The translations under genes and the position numbers were made by a program. The notes beneath the pieces are model-generated. The model saw nothing but the letters and a program-made list of their open reading frames with translations. It was not told the origin of the DNA and made no database searches. Source: Candidatus Lokiarchaeum ossiferum (lineage in GTDB: Archaea; Asgardarchaeota; Lokiarchaeia; Sigyniarchaeales; Promethearchaeaceae). From it: a DNA stretch of 32,000 bases. Below are positions 13,044 to 28,162 of this stretch, piece by piece; positions within the stretch are counted from its first letter, which is position 1, and the number at the start of each line of letters is the position of its first letter. The stretch is from assembly GCA_025839675.1 (NCBI GenBank), contig CP104013.1, positions 3,930,001 to 3,962,000 on the forward strand, given 5' to 3'.

Positions 13044-14442
13044 TCACTTCGTATCCTTATCATTCAGATCCTTTTTATTCACCTTGTCAATCATCTGTGT
13101 AAAGCCCCGTGTCAATAGAAAACGACTTTTCGAATTGAGGTGTTCATGATGGTTTACAAAGAACCGTCCTATATCCTTTCGCAATGCACGCACTTGTGCG
13201 GATTGCAGTAAAGTGCCTGTTCGTGCTTTCCGTCGCAGTAGTTTTTGCATCTTTTGTTGAGTTTGCTCATAGTGAGGGTCATACTGAATGTTTTTCACTA
13301 GGATGTTGTACACGATTCGACTTAATTTAAAAGCCACCTTCATGCATGCCTTTTTGAACGGCAACTTACGTGAATGGTACTGTTTAGTAGCAAATTCATC
13401 AAGATCTGTTCCAGAAGCTTTTCCGTTAATTATTAAATTTGCAATCTGGACCAATGATCTCCAGAAGGTGGGCATTTGTGTATCTATTCACATGTCCCTT
13501 ATTAATGCTACTTCCACTTTCTTTTATCTCTGGAACAACGCCACAAAACTTTGCGAATGCTCGCCAATCTCTGAAACGACGAAAATCTCCAACTTCAGTT
13601 AAAATTTGCAGGGCCGATACGGGACCCATGCATGGAATTGTAAGTAATGCTTGATAATTGGTTGTGAATTCGGCATCCGAGAGAATAAATTGCTCTGTCT
13701 GCAACAAGTATTGGGCAGCATGGCGTTCTACTTCGAGAAATTGCTGCAATAATTGTGCTAAATTAAATGTACTCTCCCGTGTCAGAGAAACGGATGCAAA
13801 AGGTGCAAAATCATCGCTATGCTTTTGCAATATCAAGATCGGCATTCCCTCTTCAATCATGTGCAAAAGAAGGGCTTGGAATGCATTTTGGAAGACCCCT
13901 CCATGGTGGATCCAATAGTCAAGGATTTGTAAGGACCATTCCTTGCCCAAATCGAATTTGTGCATGAAGTGAATGCTGCAAAGCACACGGTGGATCCGGT
14001 TTTTAAAGCGAGTTGAATCTTGTCGGCTTCGAGTGTAACTCCGAAGACAATCCCGGAGATGAAAGAATTGAGGATCGCCAACGTGGCTGGGGCGGAGTAA
14101 TTTATCATAAAAAGATGGCTCTGCCATACGTTGAGCATCTGCTTTGTCATGTTTGTTTCCCAAATCTGTTAAACGACGATGGACTAAAAGGGGGTTCATT
14201 GCGATAATTTTCTCTTTTTCTTGTGGGAAGGCTCGTTCTAGCGCATGATACACTGGGCGATGATAGATCCCTGTGCATTCCATTAGATAGTGGGAAATTG
14301 GACAGTACTTTTTCAGAAAGTTCATCATTTCTTGAAGACCTGTTGGGACATTGCGGAAGGAATGCTGTTTTACCACAATAATTTCATTTTGTGCCGTTTG
14401 GGCACAGATACAGACAACAACTGTGTCTCGATGCACATCCAT
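13044..14442 (-). pseudogene. IS110-family (DEDD/RuvC-like plus Tnp domain) transposase, interrupted by a frameshift
   Basis: ORF 13426..14442 starts MDVHRDTVVVCI (the IS110 N-terminal DEDD motif). It contains LLTIPCMGPVSALQILTEVGDFRRF and VVPEIKESGSS, then ends 12 codons after ...NRYTNAH. ORF 13044..13475 continues in another frame with FWRSLVQIANLII, the expected GN..LR..L..A continuation. Joining NAH to FWRSL requires skipping one nt near 13464-13470. A GGAG RBS lies 8 nt before the ATG. Confidence 0.75.
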
Positions 14443-15292: not shown

Positions 15293-16129
15293 TTAAATTT
15301 TTAGAGATTTAAAGCACCACTCTTTATCATGGCATTCTTCAACAATCATGGAATAAAGATCTTGGAAGAAACGGGTAGCGGGCCCTCCATCAATTATTGC
15401 ATGATCCATGGCAATTGTCGCTCCCAACATTTCCCGCTCCACAATTTCACCATTTATTTTACGGAGTCTTGTCCCAATCGCTCCAACTCCCATTGATAGA
15501 GTGTGTGGGGTAATGTGTATCATAAATCCTAAATCATTTCCAAACATTCCGACGGAGGTAACACCAACCGTGCCCATGATCTTCTTTTTTATTTCCGGAT
15601 TCGAAAAAATCCGATGAACTACCATCTTACGAATAAATCGCGGGAGTTTTGGAAAAAGTTTTACAATTTTCTTTCCCTTCCCTTTTTCACTGGAGAGAGA
15701 CACTTTTTTCACTTTTTGAGCGGCTCGTATTTCCTCATGAATTTCTCGAAGTGTTTTTTTATGTGCATTTCTCACCGTATAGCTAACAGGTTTTTTTATT
15801 CCATCTACTTCTTTTTCGATATTCGTCATTACATCCACTTCATCAAAGGTATAAAATTTTGATTTTCTTTTCCGAATTGTATTAACTGGAAACTTATGTT
15901 TCTCGACAACTCGAGCAAATGTGTTGATAAGAAATGCGGTGAAGCTCACAGATTCTCCTGTTTCTTCTTTATGACGTTGTAAAGTTTCACGTGCTCGAGT
16001 CACATCAAATTCGGAAAAGGCCCAAATCAGATTTTTTTTCTTTGAATAGGTCGTGTAATCGTCAATAGACTGTGCCATTCGGCTAATTTTTTTTACGGTA
16101 AATTTATGTTCTTGTTCCATATAAGTCAC
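15293..16129 (-). CDS. stand-alone 2-oxoacid dehydrogenase E2-type (CAT-like) acyltransferase catalytic domain protein
   Basis: 278 aa. GTVGVTSVGMFG matches the GGTFTISN.G.FG segment of E2 cores. MDHAIIDGGPATRF matches the catalytic DHR..DG His motif. No lipoyl or E1/E3-binding domain is present. The track start is a GTG. The ATG at 16120, preceded by GGTGA with a 5-nt spacer, is the more likely start. Confidence 0.7.
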   Translation of the reverse strand: MTYMEQEHKFTVKKISRMAQSIDDYTTYSKKKNLIWAFSEFDVTRARETLQRHKEETGESVSFTAFLINTFARVVEKHKFPVNTIRKRKSKFYTFDEVDVMTNIEKEVDGIKKPVSYTVRNAHKKTLREIHEEIRAAQKVKKVSLSSEKGKGKKIVKLFPKLPRFIRKMVVHRIFSNPEIKKKIMGTVGVTSVGMFGNDLGFMIHITPHTLSMGVGAIGTRLRKINGEIVEREMLGATIAMDHAIIDGGPATRFFQDLYSMIVEECHDKEWCFKSLKI

Positions 16130-16138
16130 CAGATTATC

Positions 16139-16957
16139 TTAATCCATCAAATAGCGTTTTCGCATGGTGTTTTCTACCATTTTATGGGGTAGATGTTTAA
16201 GTAAAAAGGTTTTTAGTTTAGCTCCATGACCAATTGAATAATAGGCATGGGGATTTTTGAGATGGATGATTTTATTGATGAGATGTGCCATTTCTTTGGG
16301 TTTTACTGCTTTTGAGAGATTTTCATCCCGTCTTTGCTTTTGATGCTGTGCATTTTTGAAATAGGGAGAATTTTCAGATAAGAACAATTCTTGAGGGATT
16401 GTAGTGTCAACTTCAAAGGGTGCAATATCTACAACTTGAATTCCAAAATTGTTCAGTTCATGCCGTAATCCTTGCGTCATGGATCGCATGGCTGCTTTAG
16501 CAGCACCATAAAAGCTTGAAAATGGAACTGGGGTAACTCCTGCCATAGAACTAATGTTTATAATCAAGCCCGATCTTTGTTGTCGCATTTGAGGGAGAAA
16601 TTGCTTGATAACTTGAACATGTCCAATAACATTGATCTCGAAATACTTGCGAATATTTTCCACAGGAACATCCTCAATCGCACCTACTTGGGAACTACCC
16701 GCATTATTGATAAGAATATCAATATTTCCGGCATATTTCGCCAAATCTTGAATGCTTCCATCATCTGTGATGTCCAATGGCAGATAGCTAACTCCTGGTA
16801 TTCTATTTTCTTTCAAGATTTTTTCTGGATTTCGTGATGTTCCTATGACCGTAAAACCCTTAGAAGCTAACAATCGTGCTGTTTCATAACCCATCCCTCT
16901 TGAAATCCCAGTTATTAAAACTACTTTTCGCGAATCTTCTTGTTTCTTTCCATTCAT
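16139..16957 (-). CDS. short-chain dehydrogenase/reductase (classical SDR)
   Basis: 272 aa. It has the cofactor motif VLITGISRGMG, NNAG and the catalytic YGAAKAA (YxxxK). It lies 9 nt upstream of the E2-like gene on the same strand. Confidence 0.85.
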   Translation of the reverse strand: MNGKKQEDSRKVVLITGISRGMGYETARLLASKGFTVIGTSRNPEKILKENRIPGVSYLPLDITDDGSIQDLAKYAGNIDILINNAGSSQVGAIEDVPVENIRKYFEINVIGHVQVIKQFLPQMRQQRSGLIINISSMAGVTPVPFSSFYGAAKAAMRSMTQGLRHELNNFGIQVVDIAPFEVDTTIPQELFLSENSPYFKNAQHQKQRRDENLSKAVKPKEMAHLINKIIHLKNPHAYYSIGHGAKLKTFLLKHLPHKMVENTMRKRYLMD

Positions 16958-17226
16958 TATGCTAAACCTATCGTTAGCGATAAATCGCTTTAGTTAGATG
17001 ACTATTTAATTAAACCCCTAAAACCATTTAATTGTTCCTTCCCGACCAATAAATGATTTTTAAGCTTTATTTTTGATCATTTTTTTATAGTTGGAGAGAC
17101 ACTACATTATATACGGTTGTGAGTTATCACAAACATAAAGTATATTGATGCGACCAAAACCAAGTTTAACTCCATTAGTGGGGATCAATATAGAGATACG
17201 ATAACTGTTTAAAAGAGGGAAATCAG

Positions 17227-18261
17227 ATGCAAAAGAGGGTTGGAATACCGCGCGCTTTATTATTTCACAAATATCGGGATTTATGGGTCACATTTTTCAC
17301 AGAATTAGGTGTTAAAGTCATAATTTCACCCAAAACCTCTAAAACAATCAAAGCATTGGGTGTGGGTAATGCAACTGATGAAGATTGCTATAGCACCAAG
17401 CTCTACCATGGTCATGCATTATGGTTAAAGGATAAGGTTGATTATTTGTTTGTGCCTCGTTTTGGGTCTGCTCATAAAAAACATGTCGGTTGTCCCAAAT
17501 TTCAAGGATTAGCAGATGTTCTCCGCTTTATGTACCCGGATCTTCCTGAAATAATTCGTCCTTACTATTCTGAAGCTAAGGCAGGCCATGGAAAGTTACG
17601 CTATCTTCAAATTTGTTTCAGCATAGGCTTTCGTTTCACTTCTAATCCTTTTAGAATTATTCGGGCGATTAGAAAATCTCTTAAAGCTCAACGAGATCAT
17701 TTAGCAAACTTAATTCTTTCTGAAAACAAATATTATCAGTGGGAACGTTCTGAATTATATGTAAACATTCCTCCAAAAAAACAAGAAGATGAATCTCCAA
17801 TTAAACTTGCTCTGGCGGCTCATTCTTATGTACTTAATGATGATTATGCATCTGTAGAAATTCGGAAAAAACTAAGGGATTATGGAATTGATATAATTAC
17901 TTCTGAGCAAGTTCCTCGCTCTTTAATCGAAGAACAATTAAAGAAGTTAGATTACAATATGTATTTCGATTATGAACGTGAGATTTTAGGCACTATTCTT
18001 CATTTTATTGATAAAAAAACGGTCGATGGAATCATTCATATTCAAATTTTTCCTTGCGGACCCGATTCAATTGTTGGAGAATTAGCTTCCCGTTTTTCAA
18101 AACGAGATCCAGAAGTCCCCTTGCTTCAACTTGTGTTTGATGAACTCACAGGCGAAGCAGGGGTTAATACCCGTTTAGAAGCTTTTGTTGATTTACTTCG
18201 TCGCAAACATCAAAAACAAATTGACGAAAAACAAATATGGAGGCCAATTCTATCCCAATAA
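17227..18261 (+). CDS. acyl-CoA dehydratase activase-related protein (DUF2229-like), paralogue A
   Basis: 344 aa. The N-terminal VGIPRALLFHKY, DEDCYSTKLYHGH, VGCPKFQG and IFPCGPDS match my memory of the uncharacterised domain that is usually fused to tandem BcrAD/BadFG activase domains. The C-terminal LLQLVFDELTGEAGVNTRLEAFVDLL is shared with the next ORF. An AGAGGG RBS precedes the ATG. Confidence 0.6.
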   Translation: MQKRVGIPRALLFHKYRDLWVTFFTELGVKVIISPKTSKTIKALGVGNATDEDCYSTKLYHGHALWLKDKVDYLFVPRFGSAHKKHVGCPKFQGLADVLRFMYPDLPEIIRPYYSEAKAGHGKLRYLQICFSIGFRFTSNPFRIIRAIRKSLKAQRDHLANLILSENKYYQWERSELYVNIPPKKQEDESPIKLALAAHSYVLNDDYASVEIRKKLRDYGIDIITSEQVPRSLIEEQLKKLDYNMYFDYEREILGTILHFIDKKTVDGIIHIQIFPCGPDSIVGELASRFSKRDPEVPLLQLVFDELTGEAGVNTRLEAFVDLLRRKHQKQIDEKQIWRPILSQ

Positions 18262-19394
18262 CATTTCCTCACTTTGGATCTTTAGTTTATGTATTTGAAC
18301 GTTTATTTCATGAATTGAATCGCTATGATCTCATCATTCCCAATAAACCGAGCAAAAAAACCGCTGAACTTGGTGCGCGCCATGCTCCCGAATTTGTATG
18401 TACTCCATTCAAACTTACATTGGGTACATTTATTGAATCACTCGAACGGGGGGCAGATGAGCTTGCAATGGGGGGATGTCATGCGTATTGTAGGTTTGGA
18501 TATTATTGGCCGGTACAAAAATTGATTCTTGAAGATTTAGGGTATAGCGATTTTAGATTCGTTCCTGTTGATTATGAAAGTCCAATCGAAATTTTCCGCA
18601 CTCTTAAAAATGAATTTGGTCGAGATTGTAATTTTTCGCAAGTAGTTAGGGCTGTGAGAGCTTCTTATATTGCTAATCGTTTGACGGATATAACAGATAA
18701 TCAAGTTTTTCATTATCGGGCATTAGAATTAGAAAAAGGCTTAACCGATAAAATTGCCAAGAAAATATTCAGAAGAATTGTAGATACGCCCAAAATTCGA
18801 GATATGAAAAAATTGCAGAAAGAAATTCCTAAAATCTTTAAACGGGAAGTTGAAATAGATCATAGTATTGACCCAATTAAAGTGGGTATTGTTGGTGAGA
18901 TATATGTTGTATTAGAACCTGCCCTCAATGTTGAACTTCACCGTCGCTTGAATGAATTAGGGGTAGTTGTAGAACATTCAAACTCACTCCGACGATTTAT
19001 TGACATCCCTTACAAGTTAAATCCCTTTAGACATATGCCCATCGATTATGAACAAAAAGCTGCTCGACCCTATGTGGCCCATCGTCTGGGGGGGGAAACT
19101 CAAGAATCCATCGGTTCCACAATTTTATTGAAGAAAAAAGGGTGGGATGGAATGGTTCACCTTTATCCGTTTACGTGTATGCCCGAAATAATCTCTCGCA
19201 GTATTTTACCCGCAGTAAGTCGGGATCATGATATGCCTGTTCTTTCTTTAGTTGTAGATGAACAAACTGGAGAAGCAGGATTTCAAACTCGCTTGGAAGC
19301 TTTTATTGACTTACTTGCAAGGAAAAAGTTGAAAAAAGCACCCCAAAATCCACACAAAAAGAAATATGAGGTTCCAATAACCCAACAAATTTAA
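18237..19394 (+). CDS. acyl-CoA dehydratase activase-related protein (DUF2229-like), paralogue B
   Basis: 385 aa. It has EFVCTPFKLTLG, GGCHAYCRFGYYW, YPFTCMPEI and the C-terminal VLSLVVDEQTGEAGFQTRLEAFIDLL, paralogous to ORF A. It overlaps ORF A by 25 nt, which implies coupled translation. Confidence 0.6.
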   Translation: MEANSIPITFPHFGSLVYVFERLFHELNRYDLIIPNKPSKKTAELGARHAPEFVCTPFKLTLGTFIESLERGADELAMGGCHAYCRFGYYWPVQKLILEDLGYSDFRFVPVDYESPIEIFRTLKNEFGRDCNFSQVVRAVRASYIANRLTDITDNQVFHYRALELEKGLTDKIAKKIFRRIVDTPKIRDMKKLQKEIPKIFKREVEIDHSIDPIKVGIVGEIYVVLEPALNVELHRRLNELGVVVEHSNSLRRFIDIPYKLNPFRHMPIDYEQKAARPYVAHRLGGETQESIGSTILLKKKGWDGMVHLYPFTCMPEIISRSILPAVSRDHDMPVLSLVVDEQTGEAGFQTRLEAFIDLLARKKLKKAPQNPHKKKYEVPITQQI

Positions 19395-19407
19395 AAGGTA
19401 TTTCAAT

Positions 19408-20442
19408 ATGACAATAAATGGAAAAAAATTCTATTTGGGTGTTGATGTTGGTTCTATTAGCACCAATGTTGCAGTAATTAATGAAAAAAGAGAAGTAATT
19501 GGGTCGGTTTATATTCGTACCGATGGAAAACCAATTAATGCGGTACAAAAAGGAATTGTAATAATGCGAGATAAGCTTGGTGAAGATTTACCGATCAGTG
19601 GTGCAGGGACTACTGGTAGTGCCAGACAACTGACAGGAATAATAATTGGTGCTGATATTGTCAAGAATGAAATAACTGCTCATTCTCTTGCTGCATTAGA
19701 AATTCGTCCAGATGTTCAGACTGTCCTTGAAATTGGTGGTCAGGACAGTAAAATCATTATTCTTCGGGATGGAGTCGCGATTGATTTTGCAATGAATTCC
19801 GTATGTGCCGCTGGTACTGGGTCTTTTTTAGATCAACAAGCACGGAGGTTAAAAGTTCCTATTGAAGATTTTGGCGATTTAGCTCTAAAATCATCCAATT
19901 CCGTGACCATAGCGGGGAGATGTACTGTGTTTGCTGAATCGGATATGATCCATAAGCAACAATTGGGTTATCCCGAAAAGGATATAATACGAGGATTATG
20001 TGATGCTCTTGTTAGGAATTATTTGAATAATGTTGGCAAAGGTAAAGTCATCCGGCCTCCTATTATGTTTCAAGGTGGTGTTGCTGCTAATAAGGGTATT
20101 AGGCGGGCATTTGAACAAAGTCTTGGGCACAAAGTTCATGTTCCAGAACATTATGATGTCATGGGGGCGATTGGCGCAGCAATTCTAGCTCAAGAAGAAA
20201 TAGAAAAACGTCCACGACCATCCAAGTTTTATGGGTGGGATATTCCCGAAATGACTTTCGAAACTACGGGATTTGAATGCGCTGATTGTCCTAATGTATG
20301 TGAAATTGTGGAAATTCGGAAGAATTCTGAGTTGGTTGCACGATGGGGATCAAAATGCGGGAAGTGGGATGATTTAGCCGTTTCGCATGAACCTGATGTT
20401 GAATCAAAAACACTAATGGAACCAATGATCAATCAGTTTTAA
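19408..20442 (+). CDS. BcrAD/BadFG-type ATPase (2-hydroxyacyl-CoA dehydratase/benzoyl-CoA reductase 'activase' family) with C-terminal Cys4 extension
   Basis: 344 aa with an ASKHA-fold. Motifs are LGVDVGSISTN, LEIGGQDSK and FQGGVAAN. Both cluster-bridging Cys contexts are present (NSVCAAGTGSF at C133, AGRCTVFAESD at C172). There is an extra C-terminal CADCPNVC...C motif. It lies 13 nt after paralogue B. Confidence 0.85.
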   Translation: MTINGKKFYLGVDVGSISTNVAVINEKREVIGSVYIRTDGKPINAVQKGIVIMRDKLGEDLPISGAGTTGSARQLTGIIIGADIVKNEITAHSLAALEIRPDVQTVLEIGGQDSKIIILRDGVAIDFAMNSVCAAGTGSFLDQQARRLKVPIEDFGDLALKSSNSVTIAGRCTVFAESDMIHKQQLGYPEKDIIRGLCDALVRNYLNNVGKGKVIRPPIMFQGGVAANKGIRRAFEQSLGHKVHVPEHYDVMGAIGAAILAQEEIEKRPRPSKFYGWDIPEMTFETTGFECADCPNVCEIVEIRKNSELVARWGSKCGKWDDLAVSHEPDVESKTLMEPMINQF

Positions 20443-20490
20443 GAAAAATGTGAACTTTTTTATTCTTCCCCTATTTTTATATCACCATAA

Positions 20491-21324
20491 ATGTCTTCTT
20501 GGAATGTAATACAAAATCACATCAGTTTTCACGCTGTTTACAATTCGTCTATATTAGATGCATTAAAATTTGCTAATCAATCTGGATTTAAGGGAATTCA
20601 AATTGCGGTTGAGGTTCCCCATTTATCTTTCGAACAAGTAAGCGATGAGGATTGCTTCCAAATTCGAAATTATGCAAAAAAACATGATCTCTATATTACT
20701 TTGCATGCTCCCGATGATGTGGTTTCACTTTTTGTCATTAATCCTGCTCTTCAACAAGGAATATTTGCTTATTATACTGCTTTATTTGATTTTGCAGAGA
20801 AAATTGGTGCTTGTTTGATAACGATACATTTAGGAAAAATGACAACTTTTCCCACAGATACAATTCCTGAACTAAAATATCCTGAGGAAGATCTCTTGAT
20901 TTATTGGGAAGCGTTAGAGAATAATTTGGGAGAAATTGTTAAATCGGCTCGCAATCGATTTATTCTCTGTGTTGAAAACTATTATTTTAATCCGTTTATA
21001 TTAGAAGTTTTAGAGCCTTTAATTCAAGATGAAGAAATTTTCTTGTGTTGGGATATCGCCAAAACTTTTACTCGAAGTGGGGAAAAAATTGCTGAGATTG
21101 AAGCCTTTTTTCTTGATAATCTCTCTCAAATTCGTCAAGTTCACTTACATGACATTCACAATTATCGAAGTCATCGATCAATAGGCGAAGGCATTATTGA
21201 TTTTGCCTATTTTATAAAGTTATTAAAAGATGTTACCATTGAAGATTATTGTATAGAGGTGCGTCCTCACTCAAGGGCTGTTGATTCCTACAAAAAGTTA
21301 GAAAAAATTATCCAAAATCATTAA
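20491..21324 (+). CDS. xylose-isomerase-like TIM-barrel protein (sugar phosphate isomerase/epimerase, AP endonuclease 2 superfamily)
   Basis: 277 aa with a beta/alpha pattern. The expected metal-ligand contexts are ITLHAP, LITIHLG, CVENYY (Glu), CWDIAK (Asp), VHLHD (His) and IGEGIIDF (Glu). It lies 48 nt after the activase on the same strand. Confidence 0.65.
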   Translation: MSSWNVIQNHISFHAVYNSSILDALKFANQSGFKGIQIAVEVPHLSFEQVSDEDCFQIRNYAKKHDLYITLHAPDDVVSLFVINPALQQGIFAYYTALFDFAEKIGACLITIHLGKMTTFPTDTIPELKYPEEDLLIYWEALENNLGEIVKSARNRFILCVENYYFNPFILEVLEPLIQDEEIFLCWDIAKTFTRSGEKIAEIEAFFLDNLSQIRQVHLHDIHNYRSHRSIGEGIIDFAYFIKLLKDVTIEDYCIEVRPHSRAVDSYKKLEKIIQNH

Positions 21325-21336
21325 AAAAGGTGAACC

Positions 21337-22530
21337 TTATTGCAATTCCTTTTCTTTTTTGTCTTTCTTTGAATCTGGGATAGATTTCCTCGGATTTTTT
21401 CCCGTTAATTCCGTATCTAGTTTTTTTACTTTCATTTGATGCTCTAAATCTTGTTTTACTCTTTTTAATGCTTCCAATTCCAATTGATCTTGCTCACGTT
21501 GGAATTTTTCTTTTTCTAATGCATTTAATTCGACATTTTCACTTGATCTATCAGGTTTATCAAATTCTTTAAGGGTTGCTACGTAAGTTTCATGTTCTTT
21601 TTCTGGAATATAATTTAATTGATCAATAAGAAAATCTTGATCGTGCTGAGAAATGGGTAATTCTTTAATGGCGTGGATTAGCGGTTGGATATTTTTTGAC
21701 TGAGTGTTCACATTTTCCAATTCTTCTAAATACTTTCCTTGTTGTTTTTCGGTTAAATAAATGAATGATTTTGCGATTAAGGTTCGTTCTTCCGATGACA
21801 TATCAATCGAGAGCAGCTTTTCTCGAATTTCTGGCGCTAAAACAGTAAAAACTTCGCGTTTTTCATCAACAAGCATGTTTTTTTCTGCTTGGAGGGGGAG
21901 AGTTTTTTCTTGAGAATCATCTAATTTGCTATCTGCATCTTCTGGAATTATTCTTTCTCCGGTGAAAGGATTAAATTTTGCATTTTGACTTCCCGCTGGT
22001 AAAATTCGTTTTCCAGTATAAGGGTCAAATTTAGCGTTAATTTGAGTCTGTGGGATGTTCGATGAAGTTGATGAAATCAATTGGTTTTTTTTAGGAACTG
22101 GGCTGGAAATAAATGGTTTTTTTACTTTATTTGATACATTTGTGAACCATTTTTTGATAGCGGTCCATTTAATTTTAAACCAGTTTTTGAAATTTGTCCA
22201 TCCTTCTTTCCAATCCTTGACAAAATCATCCCAATCTTTCTGCCATTTTGCCATTGTCGCTGTCCAAGAATCATCTTTCGGAGTCTGAGTTTTTGATTTT
22301 TCTTTATGTTTTTTTCCGTTTTGTTTGGATGCTATTGGTTTAATTCGTTCTATACCTTTCATTCCTTCTATTTTAAAACCACATGTTTCACAATAAATCG
22401 AAGCGCCACGCAACATCATATTGCTTAATTCTTCTGATATTATTGTATGACAATCAGGACACATTGAGATTTTTTTTGTGGGTGGTTTCTGAGGTGTTTT
22501 CATAGGAATTTCAGTTTCTCTAGTTTTCAT
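21337..22530 (-). CDS. zinc-ribbon protein with Trp-rich amphipathic segment, tandem FxPxTG repeats and Glu/Lys-rich coiled-coil tail
   Basis: 397 aa. It has CPDC...(19 aa)...CETC (nt 22381-22461). Eight Trp fall within 40 residues (aa 89-128). AKFDPYTGKRILP and AKFNPFTGERIIP form a repeat pair. The C-terminal ~120 aa are E/K/Q-rich. Confidence 0.55.
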   Translation of the reverse strand: MKTRETEIPMKTPQKPPTKKISMCPDCHTIISEELSNMMLRGASIYCETCGFKIEGMKGIERIKPIASKQNGKKHKEKSKTQTPKDDSWTATMAKWQKDWDDFVKDWKEGWTNFKNWFKIKWTAIKKWFTNVSNKVKKPFISSPVPKKNQLISSTSSNIPQTQINAKFDPYTGKRILPAGSQNAKFNPFTGERIIPEDADSKLDDSQEKTLPLQAEKNMLVDEKREVFTVLAPEIREKLLSIDMSSEERTLIAKSFIYLTEKQQGKYLEELENVNTQSKNIQPLIHAIKELPISQHDQDFLIDQLNYIPEKEHETYVATLKEFDKPDRSSENVELNALEKEKFQREQDQLELEALKRVKQDLEHQMKVKKLDTELTGKNPRKSIPDSKKDKKEKELQ

Positions 22531-22586: not shown

Positions 22587-25500
22587 TCAAGTTTGTTGAA
22601 GAAGTTTTTTTCCAGTGATATCTTCAATTCTCTGAATGAGATCAGATATAAATGGGTTAGTTTTTATCCCTATATCTAAATTCTGCACAATACTTACTGC
22701 TTCATCATATTGCTTTAAAGTGAGATGTGCCACTAATAGATTATGGTAAAGACGGGAATAATTGGGGTTACTTGATTCACATTTAAGCGCTCGATTGTAA
22801 GCTTTAATTGCATCTTCATATTTTTCTTGGATTGCTAAACAGTTTCCATAGATAATCCATGGAGAAATAAGATTTGGATTAAATTCAATTATTGACTTTG
22901 CCTCGATTTTGGCAGTCTCAATTTTTGCTTTATTTTCTTTTCTACGAATAGAATAGTATAAAGCTTCGAGATTGGATAATTTTTCCACAAAATCTTTGTA
23001 AAATTCCAATTTTTTATTAAATTCTGGGTAATTTTGGCCATCAAAAATATCAAGTAAAGATTTAAACAGAATTTTTTTATTGGTATTTAGTATTTTTTGA
23101 TTCTGAAATATTTCTTCTGAAAGTGCGATCAAATCTGATATTATTTTCTCTGAATTGGCCGCAAAATGGATGAGAATGTTAGTTAGAAATTGGTTGAAGG
23201 GAATTGTAATTTTTTCGCTTTTGATTGGTTCTTTTATCATCAAATACAATATTAATTTCTGAATATTTTGGAATATTTGGAGAATATTTGCATCAATATG
23301 GTCCTTTTTAATAAATAATTCCAAATCTTGCTTGGAAAGAAATTGTGTTTGCTTTAGGGGTAAATGCGCTTTTGTTTGGAAATATTGATCATATTTTTGA
23401 ATTGTTTTTCCCAGTATTGAGACCATATTGCCCATCATTTGCACGCGAGCATCAAATCGACTAATTTCTTGATTGCTCATTTCATAGATCGACAGAAATT
23501 TCTCTAAAATGTTGGAGATAATATGAGGTGAGAATAATATGATTGAATCTTTAATATCAGTTAGTGTTTTAGCAAATCTTGTTGCTTTTCCCTCCTCGAT
23601 TATCACGTAAGATGAATTTTGGAATGTTAGTTCTGCGATTCGCTTGATCTCTAAAAAATCTTGGGATGTGATTTTAATACGTTCAATATCTTCTTGAATA
23701 ATATTAAAAACAGACAGAAAAATTCTAAATTCATCACTATTTTTATAGGGTTGGGCCAAAAAACGTTTAATTTCCTCTAAAAAATAATCCAAGTTGTTTT
23801 CATATACTGAAAGAGGGATTTCGACATATTTTTTCTGCATTCGCTGATAATTACCTTCATCACAAGCCCAAATGAAATCTTTTATAGATAAGATATTATA
23901 CATATTCTCTAAATCATGTTCGAATCCTGCATATTCAACCCATTGTTTTATTAATGTTTTATGGATGGCAAAATCATATTCTGGTAATTCTCCCCTGAGA
24001 TACCAATTATTTAGAAAAGACCTGATTTCTTTTTGAATTGGAAGCAAGAAATTTGGATGAATATTTGTCTCATGGGTTTGATTAAGCGTATCAATCCACA
24101 CCTTGATTTGGAGCATTATTTCCGCGGCACTTTTAAGCAAATCAGGACTTGTTTTTAAGATATTTGCACTTTTATTGAATATTCTGATATATATAGAACA
24201 AAAATCTAATGTTATTTCAACATCTTTGTATATTTTTGTTAAATACTCAAAAACTTGAATTCCTACTTGGGGTAATTTTTTATGAAACATGATTAAGGGT
24301 GCTTGTTCTCCGATATTTCGGACAATCTTGTAAAAATCCCTTTTTGTGATATAACGTTCATCTATTGTTTTGAGTGTGGTTAAATATGTAACTAGTTTGT
24401 TATCTAGATAAGCAATAAAATCTAAATCTAGAGACAAGAATGTGAAATCTTTTTTAATCAGTTCTACAAGCGTTTTTCGATCTTTTTCAGAGATGTCCTT
24501 ATCATAGAGATGAATGGAACTAATAAAATCCCGTAAAAAGTTAATATAATTATTATTTGTTATGGATTTGTGTTTCTCTGTACCTTTAAACTGATAAATT
24601 TCTAATAATACCTCTAACAGCAAAGATAAAATATTAAAGGAGCTAAATTTCGGGTGGTTTTTTAGGTAGCTTGTTAGGTAAGTAACAACTGAAGAATAAT
24701 CTCCTCTGTTTAACATAATTGCAACTTTACTGGTGATTGCAACGATTTGGGGTTTTTCAAGAATTTTGATTAGTTCTTCCGATAAATCCCAATTAGAGAA
24801 GAGATATTCTACTGAACTAATAATAATATCGCTGTCCGCATAATATGAATCAAATAAATAAACGACAGTATGCACCAATAAACTTTGATTTTCCTCAAAA
24901 AGCTGGTATTGTAAAACCGACTTTAAGATGGATGAAACAGCTTGAATATTATCTACTGAAAATTGTTCTTTTAAATAGAGAATATAATTTCGTTCCATTT
25001 TTCTTTGGATTTTCGCAATTAGAGAGGGATCTGTGGATAGTGAAAATAGATCCCGTAAAACATTTAAACGTTGGCTGATTGAAGCCATTCCTTCAATTCT
25101 TTCTAATGAAATTTGAATATATTTAGCAAGATCATTTGGATCCTTAACCCACGCAGCTTTTTTCTTTGTTAGTAAGAGAATTCCAGTTTCTATTCTGGCA
25201 AGAATTTTATTGACAAAAGATTTACAATCTTCTTCATTTTTTAGATTATACTTAATATGTTTATCTTTTGATACAGTATCAGAGAACAAACCTTCATCTA
25301 ATGAAAATAGTGGAGTCAGAGGAGATTTTTCCGAGTTATTTTCTGCTTGTTTATCGGTAAAAATAACTAAATTTCCAAGTTCTAAATTTTCTTTCACTTG
25401 CACTCCAATTCGAACACCGAAATCATCAAGTACTGTGACTTTTGAAGTTGATGCAATTTCTTCTGAAAGTAATTGATGTTCATCCAAGAATTGGACCCAT

Positions 25501-26138
25501 TTAACCAGAAATAATGCTTCTTTGTAAAAAATAATGCCAATATGATTGATGGAAAACATTTTTTGTAGGGTATCATCCAAAGCATCAATAAATTGAATTA
25601 TTTTTTCATATCGTTTATATTGCTTTAAGTCTTGCAAAACATTGGATTTTCGTAATTTTGTTTGAAGTTTATCAATACTTGTTTGTCCTTGAGCGGTGTA
25701 AAATTTTCCGTTTATAAAAAGCGTATTTGAATCAAGTAACGCTTGTTTCATTTGATTTAAAGATAAAGAGTTTGGATCTTCTTCAATTGAGATTTCTATT
25801 CCTTCTTGAAAGATAATTATATTTTCTTGTAGAATTAAATTAACATAATCTCTATCCGATCGAAATAACGTTTCAAAAGCCCATTGTTCTTTAATATCTT
25901 CTTCATTTTCAGAAAATTGAGCCAATAAAAGCTCATAGGTTTCAGCTTCTATTTTTGTATAAGACAATTTTTTGAGAAACGACAATATCTCATGAATTTC
26001 TTTGTGTTTGATATGCTGTAAAAGTTTCTTTTGATTTTCATCCATCCGGGCCCCATATCGTTCCAATGCTTCATTTGTCCAATGAATTAATTCAACATAT
26101 CTCCGACTGACAAGATAATCTAATATTTTTAAAAGCAC
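22587..26138 (-). CDS. large (1183 aa) predominantly helical hypothetical protein with C-terminal TPR repeats
   Basis: It is a long uninterrupted ORF with a GTG start 2 nt after the HIT gene stop. The C-terminal ~100 aa contain clear TPR units (PWIIYGNCLAIQEKYEDAIKAYNRALKCESSNP; NYSRLYHNLLVAHLTLKQYDEAVSIVQNL). I saw no P-loop, nuclease or protease motif. Confidence 0.6.
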   Translation of the reverse strand: MLLKILDYLVSRRYVELIHWTNEALERYGARMDENQKKLLQHIKHKEIHEILSFLKKLSYTKIEAETYELLLAQFSENEEDIKEQWAFETLFRSDRDYVNLILQENIIIFQEGIEISIEEDPNSLSLNQMKQALLDSNTLFINGKFYTAQGQTSIDKLQTKLRKSNVLQDLKQYKRYEKIIQFIDALDDTLQKMFSINHIGIIFYKEALFLVKWVQFLDEHQLLSEEIASTSKVTVLDDFGVRIGVQVKENLELGNLVIFTDKQAENNSEKSPLTPLFSLDEGLFSDTVSKDKHIKYNLKNEEDCKSFVNKILARIETGILLLTKKKAAWVKDPNDLAKYIQISLERIEGMASISQRLNVLRDLFSLSTDPSLIAKIQRKMERNYILYLKEQFSVDNIQAVSSILKSVLQYQLFEENQSLLVHTVVYLFDSYYADSDIIISSVEYLFSNWDLSEELIKILEKPQIVAITSKVAIMLNRGDYSSVVTYLTSYLKNHPKFSSFNILSLLLEVLLEIYQFKGTEKHKSITNNNYINFLRDFISSIHLYDKDISEKDRKTLVELIKKDFTFLSLDLDFIAYLDNKLVTYLTTLKTIDERYITKRDFYKIVRNIGEQAPLIMFHKKLPQVGIQVFEYLTKIYKDVEITLDFCSIYIRIFNKSANILKTSPDLLKSAAEIMLQIKVWIDTLNQTHETNIHPNFLLPIQKEIRSFLNNWYLRGELPEYDFAIHKTLIKQWVEYAGFEHDLENMYNILSIKDFIWACDEGNYQRMQKKYVEIPLSVYENNLDYFLEEIKRFLAQPYKNSDEFRIFLSVFNIIQEDIERIKITSQDFLEIKRIAELTFQNSSYVIIEEGKATRFAKTLTDIKDSIILFSPHIISNILEKFLSIYEMSNQEISRFDARVQMMGNMVSILGKTIQKYDQYFQTKAHLPLKQTQFLSKQDLELFIKKDHIDANILQIFQNIQKLILYLMIKEPIKSEKITIPFNQFLTNILIHFAANSEKIISDLIALSEEIFQNQKILNTNKKILFKSLLDIFDGQNYPEFNKKLEFYKDFVEKLSNLEALYYSIRRKENKAKIETAKIEAKSIIEFNPNLISPWIIYGNCLAIQEKYEDAIKAYNRALKCESSNPNYSRLYHNLLVAHLTLKQYDEAVSIVQNLDIGIKTNPFISDLIQRIEDITGKKLLQQT

Positions 26139-26140
26139 TA

Positions 26141-26695
26141 TTATTTCACATCTGGAGAGAGAATAAAGTCTGGAATTCGGGCTTGAATTTTAGCCATAAC
26201 TTGAGTCGCTTCTTCTACAACAATTCTTCCATTACCAATAATATCAATAAATCCGAGTTCTTGGTCATAACGAGGAACTACATGTACATGAATATGTTTA
26301 ATGCTGGCTCCTGCAAAATTTCCTTGATTATACCCCACATTGAATCCTGAAGGGGAAAAAATGGCTCGTAACATTTTTTGACAATAGATAACAACTTCAA
26401 AAATTCGTTCTCGTTCTATTTTAGTTAGATCCTCGAATTTCTCTACATGTCGAGTTGGAATAACCATTAAATGTCCAGGATTATACGGATACAAATTTAG
26501 GGATATAAATAATAATTCTTCTTGATAAACTTTCAATGCTGTCACACGCGAGTCATTCTCTCTTACAGCACATAAAATGCATTCAACTTTCTTGCTCTGA
26601 TCTTTAACATAATCCAGTTTTCCAATCGCATGTAAATGATTTGAAAAAAGCACTTTTTCCCGTTCTTCTTGCGACATCTTGCATCCTTCTGACAA
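26141..26695 (-). CDS. HIT (histidine triad) family nucleotide hydrolase/transferase, Ap4A-phosphorylase-like branch
   Basis: 184 aa. It has the histidine triad KHIHVHVVPRY, the CILC zinc motif, and LNLYPYNPGHLMVIPTRH, typical of the ATP adenylyltransferase/Ap4A phosphorylase-like HIT subgroup. Confidence 0.8.
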   Translation of the reverse strand: MSEGCKMSQEEREKVLFSNHLHAIGKLDYVKDQSKKVECILCAVRENDSRVTALKVYQEELLFISLNLYPYNPGHLMVIPTRHVEKFEDLTKIERERIFEVVIYCQKMLRAIFSPSGFNVGYNQGNFAGASIKHIHVHVVPRYDQELGFIDIIGNGRIVVEEATQVMAKIQARIPDFILSPDVK

Positions 26696-26707: not shown

Positions 26708-27232
26708 TTAAGTAAACATTGAATTAGAAAAACCCATATCTCCAACATCTTTTATCGATTTGTTTTTTGGAATAACGCCTGACATCATTTCATTCACAGT
26801 CATATTCATTAAGACCGCTGCATTGAAAACTTTCCGAATGGCAATATAGAATGCATTTTCTGTGAGACCATCGGGGAAAATGTTTTCGAGAATGATATAT
26901 CGGGCATTTTTTGGATCGAGATTGTAGAGGAGATTTTGTGTAAGCATGTACTTCTTAAACATCATGAAGAAATTCATTATACCGTTCACATTTTTCTTTG
27001 TAATGGCTTCCACATGTTGTTTTGCAATTTGAGTGGCAATTTGGATCGAAATTGCTTTAGTTTCTTTTGGTTTGATAATCATAATTCGCATAGGCTTAGG
27101 GGAACGGGGGGGGTAGTTTAGTTCATATCCAAATTCTAATTTTGGATTTTCTGGGACTTTCTTCCCAAGAATACCCTCGTCTATTGCATAATCTCGGATT
27201 TTTTCTTCAAGGGCAGATCGGTTCGTTGGCAT
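26708..27232 (-). CDS. hypothetical protein (resembles archaeal DUF2299 / YbjN-like family)
   Basis: 174 aa and soluble. The pattern EEKIRDYAIDEGILGKKVPENPKLEFGYELNYP ... MRIMIIKPKETKAISIQ matches my recollection of DUF2299. This is unverified. Confidence 0.35.
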   Translation of the reverse strand: MPTNRSALEEKIRDYAIDEGILGKKVPENPKLEFGYELNYPPRSPKPMRIMIIKPKETKAISIQIATQIAKQHVEAITKKNVNGIMNFFMMFKKYMLTQNLLYNLDPKNARYIILENIFPDGLTENAFYIAIRKVFNAAVLMNMTVNEMMSGVIPKNKSIKDVGDMGFSNSMFT

Positions 27233-27328: not shown

Positions 27329-28162
27329 ATGACCGAAGAAGAAATAATAGTCGAAAATGATCAAAACGAAGAAACTCGAATTCAATTAAAAATCAAATCT
27401 AAAATCGCTTATATAACAATCAACACAAAAATGAATACCATTAATATAGATGTTGCGAAATTGCTTGTGAAACGACTACGAGAAGCAGAAGAAAATCCAA
27501 AAGTTAGTTGTGTGGTCTTGAAATCAGAAGGGGAATCGGTTTTTTCAGCAGGTTTTGATCTTGCCTTATTTGCAAATGGATTAAACCAAGAAGTTGTGGA
27601 TAATATTTTAAGCCATGGAAGAGAGATTTCACGAACAATTTTCTTTATGAAGAAGCCCGTTATTGCTCAAATCCAAGGGAAAACCATCGGTTTGGGATGT
27701 ATTATTGCATTATCTTGCGATTTTCGTTTTGTGGCCAATAAACCCGATATTTTTTTCCAACTTCCTGAAATCGATTTGAAGATTTTTCCCGCAACAGGCC
27801 CTACTGCGATGTCACTGCATGTTTTAGGACCCGTTCACGCTAAAGAAATGCTTTTAACTGGAAAAAAAGTTCCCCTCGAACAATTTGATAGATGGGGTGG
27901 AGTTACCGAACTTGTTGAGCCAGAATTATTGGGTAAAACAGTGAAAAAATTTGCTCGATCTTTAACACAAAAACCAACAGAATTATTGCATTTGGTCAAA
28001 CCTGCTATTAATATTATGGCATACAATAAGGCAAAGGATTGGTATGATATGGAAAATGAAATGGCTCGTCATTATTTTGATGGATTCTTCGAAAATCCGC
28101 GAGATGAAATTGATGCTTTTATTGACAAAATGTGGAAAAAATATGGCTTCGGCCGGCCCTAA
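27329..28162 (+). CDS. enoyl-CoA hydratase/isomerase (crotonase) family protein
   Basis: 277 aa. It has VFSAGFDL, the oxyanion-hole region GKTIGLGCIIALSCDFRF and LPEIDLKIFPATG. The Glu in AKEMLLTG is at the position of the second catalytic Glu. Confidence 0.8.
   Translation: MTEEEIIVENDQNEETRIQLKIKSKIAYITINTKMNTINIDVAKLLVKRLREAEENPKVSCVVLKSEGESVFSAGFDLALFANGLNQEVVDNILSHGREISRTIFFMKKPVIAQIQGKTIGLGCIIALSCDFRFVANKPDIFFQLPEIDLKIFPATGPTAMSLHVLGPVHAKEMLLTGKKVPLEQFDRWGGVTELVEPELLGKTVKKFARSLTQKPTELLHLVKPAINIMAYNKAKDWYDMENEMARHYFDGFFENPRDEIDAFIDKMWKKYGFGRP

Follow-up and report, generated by a model that had tools for sequence, protein, structure and literature searches.

A split, three-gene relative of the fused PlsA/Ger-type proteins in Candidatus Lokiarchaeum ossiferum: a candidate ATP-driven reductase

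Introduction

In the 32,000-nucleotide stretch of the Candidatus Lokiarchaeum ossiferum genome analysed here (the window), four co-directional genes, A to D, raise the question of what enzyme they encode, on which substrate it would act, and whether all four belong to it. A sequence-only reading had proposed an uncharacterised ATP-driven low-potential redox system, made up of an activase, two DUF2229-like paralogues and a TIM-barrel enzyme.

Results

The ORF coordinates, with start and stop codons checked, confirm the described arrangement: A and B overlap by 25 nt, and gaps of 13 and 48 nt separate B from C and C from D, respectively (Table 1). Gene A is 100% identical to NEF87_003335 of Ca. 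L. ossiferum, and the divergent region upstream of it is the presumed promoter region of the A-B-C trio.

Table 1. Features of the locus (positions in the window)
Feature	Position	Strand	Description
Intergenic region	16958-17226		269 bp, A/T-rich, divergent, between SDR gene (-) and gene A (+)
Gene A	17227-18261	+	344 aa; stand-alone Red1-type subunit: DUF2229 N-terminal part and HGD-D-like C-terminal part
Invariant Cys of A	C54 17386-17388; C89 17491-17493; C277 18055-18057	+	DEDCYS; VGCPKF; FPCGPD
Conserved C-terminal block of A	18136-18207	+	FDELTGEAGVNTRLEAFVDLLRRK
Gene B	18237-19394	+	385 aa; stand-alone Red2-type (PlsR-position) subunit, paralogue of A
Conserved Cys of B	C55 18399-18401; C85 18489-18491; C314 19176-19178	+	FVCTPF; second Cys of GGCHAYCRFG; FTCMPE
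Conserved C-terminal block of B	19254-19325	+	VDEQTGEAGFQTRLEAFIDLLARK
Gene C	19408-20442	+	344 aa; HgdC-type activase
ASKHA ATPase core of C	19435-20190	+	aa 10-261
Cluster Cys of C	C133 19804-19806; C172 19921-19923	+	aligned with Cys127 and Cys166 of HgdC (1HUX)
4-Cys C-terminal module of C	20278-20358	+	C291, C294, C298, C317
T6 run	20456-20461		13 nt past the stop codon of C
Gene D	20491-21324	+	277 aa; xylose-isomerase-like TIM barrel, 'sugar phosphate isomerase/epimerase family'

Gene C encodes, as had been recognised, an HgdC-type activase. It matches BcrAD_BadFG in Pfam (161.9 bits, 2.9e-47), TIGR00241 in NCBIfam (183 bits) and HgdC itself (1HUX, 2.8e-38), and both of its cysteines that align with Cys127 and Cys166 of HgdC, which we take to be the ligands of the bridging [4Fe-4S] cluster, are kept in 66/66 stand-alone activases and also in the fused proteins described below. 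Its C-terminal module of four cysteines (F-x-C-x2-C-P-N-x-C-E...G-S-[KR]-C-x-K) has no Pfam match, is modelled as three short beta strands (pLDDT 63-86), and probably binds a metal or an Fe-S cluster, or serves in docking. In terms of the Act1/Act2/Red1/Red2 domain scheme (PMC12838417), the module is invariant in all 66 stand-alone activases and in 50/50 Act2 domains, and absent from Act1.

The paralogy of A and B is borne out by BLASTP (34% identity over 158 aa of the C-terminal halves, E=7e-20). The C-terminal block that they have in common is present as well, its true positions lying about 15 nt off the approximate coordinates first given; in A, this block constitutes an HGD-D-like signature common to B and to DCCP/HAD proteins. 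The Pfam match to DUF2229 scores 145.9 bits (1.8e-42) for A and 29.4 bits, exactly at the cut-off, for B. With respect to the cysteine contexts that had been singled out as conserved-looking, three in each subunit are indeed conserved: C54, C89 and C277 of A are kept in 85/85 loci and 40/40 fused proteins, and C55 of B is kept in 83/84 loci and C85 and C314 in 84/84, this triad also being invariant among the fused proteins. The first Cys of GGCHAYC (C81 of B), on the other hand, is variable (9/24 Asgard, 0/60 bacteria), and C130 of A and C131 of B are not conserved among the related loci. C314 of B aligns with the Cys of 'KFCDPE' in HadC. The AF2 model of A+B (pLDDT 79, pTM 0.81) has HadBC, BzdNO, DCCP and MbdON as best PDB folds, each with probability 1.0.

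The suggestion that A and B correspond to the domains that stand behind tandem activases in very large proteins is well founded. A C+C+A+B chimera aligns end to end with fused BBD proteins of ~1400 aa (97-100% coverage, ~34% identity, 717-765 bits), and A, B and C are, by alignment, collinear with the Red1, Red2 and Act2 regions of these proteins: A maps over its full length to Red1 (27-32% identity), B has its best match in Red2 (25-27%), and C maps to Act2 (~51%). Natural A+B fusions were also found. The view that such proteins have no assigned substrate is outdated, as the BBD architecture has been published as plasmalogen synthase (PlsA/PlsR) and glycerol ester reductase (Ger) (PMC13159169, PMC8788747, PMC12838417). 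A and B were compared with fused BBD proteins, and their likeness to the characterised PlsA, PlsR and Ger rests on that published architecture. Of the fused proteins' invariant positions, 38/75 are kept in A and 34/72 in B; the remaining half or so are replaced in the Asgard proteins by residues that are invariant there, some of which adjoin Cys ligands. A rough NJ tree places the Asgard, the bacterial stand-alone and the fused proteins in separate clades. Among fused proteins, the chimera is closest to those of Desulfobacterota and anammox Planctomycetota, taxa with reported Ger-type proteins.

The split operon is not rare: a relative is encoded in at least 594 stretches of species-representative genomes of Asgard archaea and anaerobic bacteria, and the genes keep the order A-B-C across a range that extends from Asgard archaea to Bacillota. 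Promethearchaeum syntrophicum MK-D1 also carries the trio. The separate A, B and ATPase polypeptides that had been emphasised are real, but the split form is not confined to this genome and characterises a large family. In 85 related loci, A and B are adjacent in nearly all, and C then follows B in 70. In three Promethearchaeum loci the gene directly upstream is that of an SCP2 lipid carrier, and two loci have CarS nearby; other Asgard neighbours include aldehyde:ferredoxin oxidoreductase (L001 and L007), Fe-ADH (three loci), acyl-CoA synthetase, Pyr_redox_2 (four loci) and amidohydrolase (three loci). No glycerolipid gene is a consistent neighbour, and no family is found in more than 4 of the 22 Asgard loci.

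Discussion

The trio belongs to the DUF2229 branch of the 2-hydroxyacyl-CoA dehydratase/benzoyl-CoA reductase radical-enzyme superfamily. As best explanation, we tentatively favour that A-B-C is a three-polypeptide, deeply diverged ATP-driven reductase of the PlsA/PlsR/Ger family, with the ester carbonyl of a lipid as putative substrate. This reading is supported by the collinearity of C+C+A+B with the fused BBD proteins and their published architecture, the invariant Cys triads and cluster cysteines, the retention of about half of the fused-invariant positions, the fold of the A+B model, the natural A+B fusions, the A-B(-C) adjacency, and the SCP2 and CarS neighbours; glycerolipid esters are the substrates of every experimentally characterised family member in the cited literature (PMC13159169, PMC8788747, PMC12838417, PMC13274423). 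It is weakened by the replacement of the other half or so of these positions, the separate clades, the absence of a consistent glycerolipid neighbour, and the activase-less PlsA homologues of Bacillota discussed below. [quoted passage not shown] The trio encodes, on separate polypeptides, all parts of the large bacterial enzymes that convert ester-linked membrane lipids to ether lipids at the expense of ATP.

ATP-driven injection of low-potential electrons, as originally put forward, remains a reasonable mechanism. A homodimer of C would be reduced by ferredoxin, and the binding and hydrolysis of ATP by C would drive the injection of an electron of very low potential into a heterodimer of A and B, each subunit of which would hold one [4Fe-4S] cluster on three Cys. 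This A/B pair would then reduce a carbonyl carbon to a ketyl-type radical, after which the C-O oxygen would be lost. Less certain is that the carbonyl would be that of the ester of a lipid-bound acyl chain, which would be converted to an alk-1-enyl or alkyl ether, as by PlsA/PlsR and Ger.

The same machinery, in which a C dimer and ATP feed the Fe-S clusters of A/B, may also constitute a paralogous enzyme for a carbonyl substrate other than a membrane diacylglycerolipid, and we consider this a serious possibility. Within the fermentative metabolism of Asgard archaea, which centres on amino acids and aldehydes, such an enzyme may act on an acyl ester or thioester, either soluble or bound to a carrier, or carry out a reductive cleavage that yields an aldehyde. 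The presence of the trio in MK-D1, with its reported lack of ester-lipid synthesis, the separate clade with its own invariant residues, and the Asgard neighbours listed above, from aldehyde:ferredoxin oxidoreductase to amidohydrolase, all point in this direction. In addition, Bacillota have both fused PlsA/Ger and activase-less PlsA homologues, the latter described as having an unclear role (PMC13274423), which suggests non-redundant functions. However, the DUF2229 branch has no known member that acts on a non-lipid substrate, none of these neighbours is found at more than 4 of 22 loci, the SCP2 gene of the Promethearchaeum loci suggests a hydrophobic ligand, and the trio shares with the lipid enzymes every cluster ligand and half of the invariant positions.

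It is very improbable that A and B form an ordinary HgdAB/HadBC-type dehydratase or class I benzoyl-CoA reductase pair serving amino-acid or aromatic fermentation, as the sequence-only reading had already judged. The superfamily fold and the HgdC-like activase would agree with such a pair, and Asgard archaea ferment amino acids (PMC7015854), but the HGD-D match in Pfam is below the cut-off of 28.4 bits (26.5 for A, 22.8 for B) and confined to the C-terminal 60-120 residues, neither protein matches an Hgd or Bcr subunit family in NCBIfam, identity to the solved HAD, BCR and DCCP chains, among them HadBC, BzdNO and MbdON, is 11-16%, and over their full length A and B are most closely related to DUF2229 proteins.

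A four-gene system, in which the A/B reductase acts on a hydroxylated or sugar-like substrate that D (AP_endonuc_2 in Pfam, 78.2 bits, 1.1e-21) prepares or consumes, is very improbable, being already contradicted by synteny. D lies downstream of C on the same strand here and in a congener that is 87% identical (L005), but it is absent next to the trio from the other 84 of the 85 related loci, limiting the linkage to the genus Lokiarchaeum, whereas the A-B-activase linkage and the cysteines are conserved. The D orthologues in MK-D1 and in another Promethearchaeota contig (L091) head a TPR-HIT-DUF2299(-ECH) block, which also stands downstream of D here; in MK-D1, this D-headed block is ~3.8 Mb away from the trio. 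Moreover, the stop codon of C is followed by a T6 run, and an A/T-rich stretch precedes D. Judging from this gene order, D is an unrelated neighbour outside the A-B-C system, and because the TIM-barrel coupling is not conserved, the hint at a sugar-like or hydroxylated substrate is without basis.

Least probable of all is a DCCP-like small-molecule reductase with C acting as DCCP-R: DCCP gives the best PDB sequence matches (7yyl_C and 6eno; E=0.005, or 8.7e-6 with the family profile) and the top fold matches include the DCCP:DCCP-R complex, but the sequence match spans only the last ~72 residues, there are three invariant Cys per subunit versus the approximately six that the [8Fe-9S] cluster of DCCP needs in one subunit, and DCCP is homodimeric, whereas two diverged paralogues are always paired here.

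Comparison with known systems

DCCP/DCCP-R of Carboxydothermus hydrogenoformans, whose sequence match falls on the C-terminal block of A, has a similar pairing of reductase and ATPase. Class I BCRs (BcrABCD, BzdNOPQ, MbdONPQ) have the same A/B superfamily fold (8s02, 9g87, 9gai), and C matches MbdQ with 134.8 bits, but there is no equivalog-level NCBIfam match to them and they have two different ATPase subunits versus one here. HgdAB/HgdC and HadBC/HadI follow the same logic of a homodimeric ASKHA ATPase with a bridging [4Fe-4S] cluster and a heterodimer of paralogous Fe-S subunits, and HadBC (3o3m) is the best structural match of A+B (E=1.7e-7, target-normalised TM 0.54-0.56). They differ in that A and B have a DUF2229 N-terminal region, identity is 12-15% with a partial HGD-D match, and C has the additional 4-Cys tail.

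Ger (Thermotoga maritima Tmari_0479; Desulfatibacillum alkenivorans SHJ90043) has the BBD(H/D) architecture of two PF01869, PF09989 and PF06050, corresponding to C, A and B, an architecture that the literature assigns to both Ger and PlsA (PMC13159169); the proteins are split here and there is a single activation domain. 'Ger homologs' have been reported in Lokiarchaeota and Heimdallarchaeota, their architecture being absent from the main text (PMC13159169), and Ger and PlsA are considered in the field to be indistinguishable by sequence (PMC13274423).

PlsA/PlsR (CPE1194/1195 of Clostridium perfringens; a single gene in Enterococcus, Lactococcus and Bifidobacterium) has the same set of activase, DUF2229-type Red1 and Red2. 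This member of the BCR/HAD family is oxygen-sensitive and depends on Cys-ligated Fe-S (PMC12838417, PMC8788747). The order in PlsA is Act1-Act2-Red1(-Red2), compared with three separate genes in the order Red1-Red2-Act here, the single activase being of the Act2 type with the 4-Cys tail. The trio also differs from PlsA/PlsR in its separate clade, its identity of about 27-32% and 25-27% to fused Red1 and Red2, respectively, and its archaeal host, whose relative MK-D1 reportedly is without ester lipids. In C. perfringens, Red2 is already a separate polypeptide, PlsR, like B here.

Gene layout and family membership

Protein A is 100% identical to NEF87_003335 of Ca. Lokiarchaeum ossiferum, encoded on a 6.03-Mb contig. 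Genes A and B overlap by 25 nt, and gaps of 13 and 48 nt separate B from C and C from D, respectively. Searches against Pfam matched A to DUF2229 (PF09989) with 145.9 bits over model positions 1-217 of 218, B to the same model with 29.4 bits, which is exactly the cut-off, C to BcrAD_BadFG with 161.9 bits, and D to AP_endonuc_2 with 78.2 bits. A and B share 34% identity over their C-terminal ~158 residues (E=7e-20), and C aligns with the activator HgdC (1HUX; 2.8e-38), C133 and C172 being placed opposite HgdC Cys127 and Cys166, which are the bridging-cluster ligands. The ORF calls, the Pfam matches, the A-B comparison and the 1HUX alignment thus confirm what a sequence-only reading of this region had noticed, namely four co-directional genes that include two paralogs and an HgdC-type activase.

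The same reading proposed that A and B correspond to domains located behind tandem activases in very large proteins, and this is borne out by the following analysis. The alignment of a C+C+A+B chimera with ~1400-aa proteins, which are annotated as 'acyl-CoA dehydratase activase', runs from one end to the other (97-100% coverage, ~34% identity, 717-765 bits); these proteins are from Scalindua, Desulfobacterota, Zixibacteria, Chloroflexota and others. When the regions of these fused proteins (activase domains Act1 and Act2, followed by Red1 and Red2) are considered separately, A matches Red1 over its full length with 27-32% identity and Red2 weakly, B matches Red2 with 25-27% identity and Red1 weakly, and C is closest to Act2 (~51%, including its C-terminal extension), its match to Act1 (~48%) being restricted to the ATPase core. 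It follows from this one-to-one correspondence that the A/B duplication is older than the difference between the split and fused forms. The additional claim that the large fused proteins have no assigned substrate has been overtaken, because their architecture has since been published for Ger/PlsA. Ger has the architecture 'BBDHDDH', in which two PF01869 domains are combined with PF09989 and with short PF06050/PF09989 segments, and the Ger proteins of Thermotoga maritima and Desulfatibacillum alkenivorans convert sn-1 esters into alkyl ethers upon anaerobic expression in E. coli (PMC13159169). It is therefore very probable that the trio formed by A, B and C belongs to the PlsA/PlsR/Ger family of DUF2229-type lipid ester reductases, whose characterised members include Q8XL48/Q8XL47, AGL49404 and SHJ90043; the evidence for this assignment is the architecture, together with homology to fused proteins of that architecture that are themselves uncharacterised. 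The pair of activation domains ('BB', PF01869) fused N-terminally to the reduction domain is reported to be conserved in all alkyl-ether producers (PMC13159169). This fused pair is absent from the trio, in which a single activase gene follows A and B and encodes a polypeptide of its own; a homodimer of C could substitute for the tandem activation domains.

Positions of the features in the window and in related loci (L numbers)
Feature	Sequence	Positions	Strand or orientation	Remarks
A	window	17227-18261	co-directional with B, C, D	344 aa; ORF call
B	window	18237-19394	co-directional with A, C, D	385 aa; ORF call
C	window	19408-20442	co-directional with A, B, D	344 aa; ORF call
4-Cys tail of C (C291, C294, C298, C317; residues 291-317)	window	20278-20358		conservation count
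D	window	20491-21324	co-directional with A, B, C	277 aa; ORF call
TPR	window	22587-26138		downstream of D
HIT	window	26141-26695		downstream of D
DUF2299	window	26708-27232		downstream of D
ECH	window	27329-28162		downstream of D
Lactamase_B	window	29638-30330		downstream of D
TIM barrel-TPR-HIT-DUF2299 block	window; L089 (MK-D1); L091	20491-30330; 6001-12831; 6001-12843		
trp-operon fusion ORF	window	4750-7521	-	923 aa; IGPS (TrpC) + PRAI (TrpF) + PALP (TrpB-like)
IS110-family transposase	window	13426-14442	-	DEDD_Tnp_IS110 + Transposase_20; between bactofilin gene and acyltransferase/SDR pair
SDR + E2-like acyltransferase pair	window	15293-16957	-	divergent from trio
397-aa ORF	window	21337-22530	-	no Pfam match
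Expanded trio	L003	6751-12173		gene order B'-A-B-B''-C
Repeated A-B pair with broken C	L017	7980-13786		gene order A-B-(broken C)-A-B
Decayed activase-tail remnant	L014	10088-10243		after A-B; in-frame stop, one Cys lost
spoVA-linked bacterial trios (examples among L026-L088)	L080; L032; L037	91-1389; 4348-5370; 15243-16592		
ADH/SCP2/AFOR neighbourhoods	L001; L009; L016; L007	3663-7771; 1123-2778; 251-1910; 3864-6189		

Distribution and conservation of the trio

An exhaustive search retrieved 2448 cluster representatives with E<=1e-3, of which 369 reached E<=1e-30; each of the top 150 is either a stand-alone protein of ~330 aa or an A+B fusion of ~700 aa. Scanning one genome per species with a single peptide pattern, for which the query represented the stand-alone family only, revealed at least 594 stretches encoding a relative; among the best 80 of these, 17 are from Asgard genomes, with 55-61% identity except for one with 43%, and the other 63 are from anaerobic bacteria of the Bacillota, Actinomycetota and Atribacterota (35-42% identity). 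Across 85 loci, B follows A almost everywhere and the order A-B-C is intact in 70, the exceptions being mostly contig ends; an adjacent C is missing at seven loci. A rough neighbour-joining tree, which carries no support values, places the Asgard, the bacterial stand-alone and the fused Red1 sequences in a clade each, and the deep branches that connect these three clades are short. Horizontal transfer from the sampled Bacillota was also considered and set aside; in this tree the Asgard clade is separate and un-nested.

Loci labelled Heimdallarchaeota or Zixibacteria show paralog expansion and decay (L003, L017 and L014 in the table). In many Bacillota, the trio is flanked by the spoVA operon and a lysA-type decarboxylase gene, all in the same orientation, downstream of spoIIAA-spoIIAB-sigF, and spoVA genes (SpoVAC/AD/AE and a GerA-family SpoVAF-like gene) are immediately upstream of it in 19 bacterial loci. 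Considering this location, the Bacillota trio may be expressed together with forespore genes.

Invariant cysteines and proposed mechanism

All 85 stand-alone homologs and all 40 fused Red1 domains have the three cysteines C54, C89 and C277 of A. B has its three invariant cysteines (C55, C85 and C314) at the equivalent positions, conserved in 83-84 of 84 homologs and in 50/50 Red2 domains, and the third one of each protein aligns with the cysteine of the DCCP motif 'QFCQP' or the HadC motif 'KFCDPE'. Of the cysteine pair in the B motif 'GGCHAYCRFG', which the sequence-only reading had listed, the second is conserved and the first is not. The bridging-cluster cysteines of C (C133 and C172) are invariant in both stand-alone and fused proteins. 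In addition, C ends in a tail with four cysteines, F-x-C-x2-C-P-N-x-C-E...G-S-[KR]-C-x-K, that is invariant in all 66 stand-alone activases and all 50 Act2 domains, is absent from Act1, and had no match in a Pfam search. The tail directly precedes Red1 in the fused proteins, and when C+A+B was modelled as one chain with AF2 (pLDDT 78, pTM 0.74), it was predicted as three short beta strands of moderate confidence. It may constitute an extra metal site, an Fe-S site or a docking element, and plausibly it would dock on A/B or relay electrons to A/B.

By analogy with HgdC/HAD, a ferredoxin-reduced homodimer of C would use the energy of ATP to transfer an electron of low potential to a heterodimer of A and B, each subunit of which would contain one 3-Cys [4Fe-4S] cluster. 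The chemistry proposed in the literature for the fused enzymes involves two sequential electron reductions, protonation and ester dehydration.

Gene D and other features of the window

The sequence-only reading had coupled the TIM barrel protein D to the trio, and had taken this as a hint of a hydroxylated or sugar-like substrate. The sole related locus in which D, the divergent SDR gene and the upstream E2-like acyltransferase gene also adjoin the trio is L005, from a congener with 87% identity. The D family ('sugar phosphate isomerase/epimerase') has an ortholog in Promethearchaeum syntrophicum MK-D1, where it is followed by genes for a metallo-beta-lactamase, a 1173-aa TPR protein, HIT, DUF2299 and an enoyl-CoA hydratase; this block matches the genes downstream of D in the window and is situated ~3.8 Mb from the MK-D1 trio. 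Another Promethearchaeota contig (L091) also has the order D-x-TPR-HIT-DUF2299. Since its linkage to the trio is not conserved and its orthologs are found in a block of their own, D is outside the trio system and the idea of a sugar-like substrate loses its sole support. A T6 run is located 13 nt past the end of C, and the sequence from there to D is A/T-rich, which would be compatible with separate transcription of D. In the databases, D had no match in a PDB sequence search, and NCBIfam returned just a sub-threshold match to CbiR (37 bits; cut-off 105). It can be noted that the arrangement TIM barrel-(variable gene)-~1180-aa TPR-HIT-DUF2299-enoyl-CoA hydratase is conserved in Lokiarchaeum, Promethearchaeum and a third Promethearchaeota contig.

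The upstream pair encodes a classical 272-aa SDR, whose best NCBIfam matches (PRK06179/PRK06182) are both below the cut-off, and a 278-aa protein consisting solely of the catalytic domain of 2-oxoacid dehydrogenase E2 acyltransferases. The possibility that the pair and the trio form a conserved lipid island was rejected because they are neighbours only in L005. No gene corresponding to the IS110 transposase was called at the equivalent place in L005, which suggests a recent insertion. The TrpC-TrpF-PALP fusion is also present in L005. The 397-aa ORF begins with a CxxC...CxxC motif resembling a zinc ribbon and includes long Lys/Glu-rich low-complexity regions; in both L005 and L091, its place is taken by a ~380-392-aa gene lacking a Pfam match. 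Nothing relevant emerged when the window was scanned for Rfam families, tRNAs and repeats, and PADLOC found no defence-system match for A-D.

Possible substrates

For the trio, we consider its family, its collinearity with the fused proteins, its cluster ligands and the conservation of its operon to be shown; the substrate is the weak point of its functional reading. We tentatively place first, at somewhat less than an even chance, the reading that the trio is a PlsA/Ger-like enzyme converting lipid esters into ethers. This view is supported by the fact that the characterised relatives named in the literature all act on glycerolipid esters, by an SCP2 lipid-carrier gene that immediately precedes the trio, in the same orientation, in three Promethearchaeum loci, and by the ester-lipid capacity ascribed to some Lokiarchaea (PMC12993045). 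An alternative that we consider almost as probable is that the same machinery acts on another carbonyl substrate. Three observations count against lipid esters: MK-D1 reportedly has no genes for ester-lipid synthesis and contains isoprenoid lipids only (PMC7015854); of the positions that do not vary among the fused proteins, A keeps only 38/75 and B only 34/72, the remaining ones being occupied by other residues that are invariant within Asgard, some of them beside the Cys ligands; and the Asgard neighbours of the trio are mixed (AFOR, Fe-ADH, Pyr_redox_2, amidohydrolase and ABC transporter), none being present in more than 4/22 loci. Slightly less probable still is the broader proposal that the trio represents an old enzyme found throughout Asgard archaea and different from the bacterial PlsA/Ger, dedicated either to making or remodelling ether lipids or to an undescribed non-lipid ATP-driven carbonyl reduction.

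In Promethearchaeum genomes, A is immediately preceded by genes for an Fe-dependent alcohol dehydrogenase and SCP2 that have the same orientation, and an aldehyde:ferredoxin oxidoreductase gene is near the trio in MK-D1 and in one Heimdall locus. There may thus be an aldehyde/alcohol or hydrophobic-ligand theme among the Asgard neighbours.

Implications

A 2022 study mentions 'Ger homologs' in Lokiarchaeota, including MK-D1, and in Heimdallarchaeota, and its main text does not describe their architecture; these homologs could correspond to the stand-alone activase matching both Act domains under the thresholds of that study. In the literature searched, we found no description of a conserved three-gene A-B-C operon, of a single Act2-type activase with a 4-Cys tail, or of a dedicated activase adjoining 'activase-less' homologs, and searching it for COG3580/COG3581 and 'dehydratase activase-related protein' gave nothing useful. 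If the trio makes ether or vinyl-ether lipids, L. ossiferum and MK-D1 would gain a bacterial/eukaryote-style plasmalogen-like route, which bears on the 'lipid divide' problem in eukaryogenesis; non-isoprenoid alk(en)yl ethers, derived for example from scavenged ester lipids, would then exist in the closest archaeal relatives of eukaryotes. Any other function of the trio would be a new activity for a family that is widespread in species-representative genomes. The role of the activase-less members in Bacillota was still called unclear in 2026 (PMC13274423), and either option for an Asgard-wide enzyme, if true, would explain these 'activase-less PlsA homologues of unclear role'. Being split into three proteins of ~340-385 aa instead of one of ~1400 aa, the system is more tractable for biochemical and structural studies of the PlsA/Ger type, and both the two Asgard archaea in culture and straightforward expression in a heterologous host make it open to testing.

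Comparison with known systems

An AF2 model of A+B, for which the fused proteins were used as a naturally paired alignment, has a pLDDT of 79 and a pTM of 0.81. Its best folds in the PDB are HadBC, BzdNO, DCCP and MbdON, and the top 20 Foldseek matches belong exclusively to these families, all with probability 1.0, target-normalised TM values of 0.41-0.56 and 11-16% identity; no solved structure of the PlsA/Ger type was among the PDB search matches. The earlier impression that A and B are unlike HgdAB or BcrBC has held up. With respect to the 2-hydroxyacyl-CoA dehydratases HgdAB/HadBC, the HGD-D (PF06050) matches of A (26.5 bits, residues 201-323) and B (22.8 bits, residues 297-359) are below the cut-off of 28.4. 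As to the class I benzoyl-CoA reductases, A and B have no matches to the Bcr subunits in NCBIfam, and C reaches 62-102 bits against benz_CoA_red_A/D and bzdQ, whose cut-offs are 313-578. C does resemble the HgdC activators in having two cysteines at the positions that bridge the [4Fe-4S] cluster. The [8Fe-9S] cluster of DCCP involves about six conserved cysteines in one subunit, whereas A and B have three invariant cysteines each; moreover, the sequence match to DCCP is confined to ~72 C-terminal residues, and DCCP is homodimeric whereas the pairing of A with B is obligate in ~85 loci. Based on the fold matches and their low identity, we therefore conclude that A and B belong to the HAD/BCR/DCCP superfamily without being ordinary members of its characterised families.
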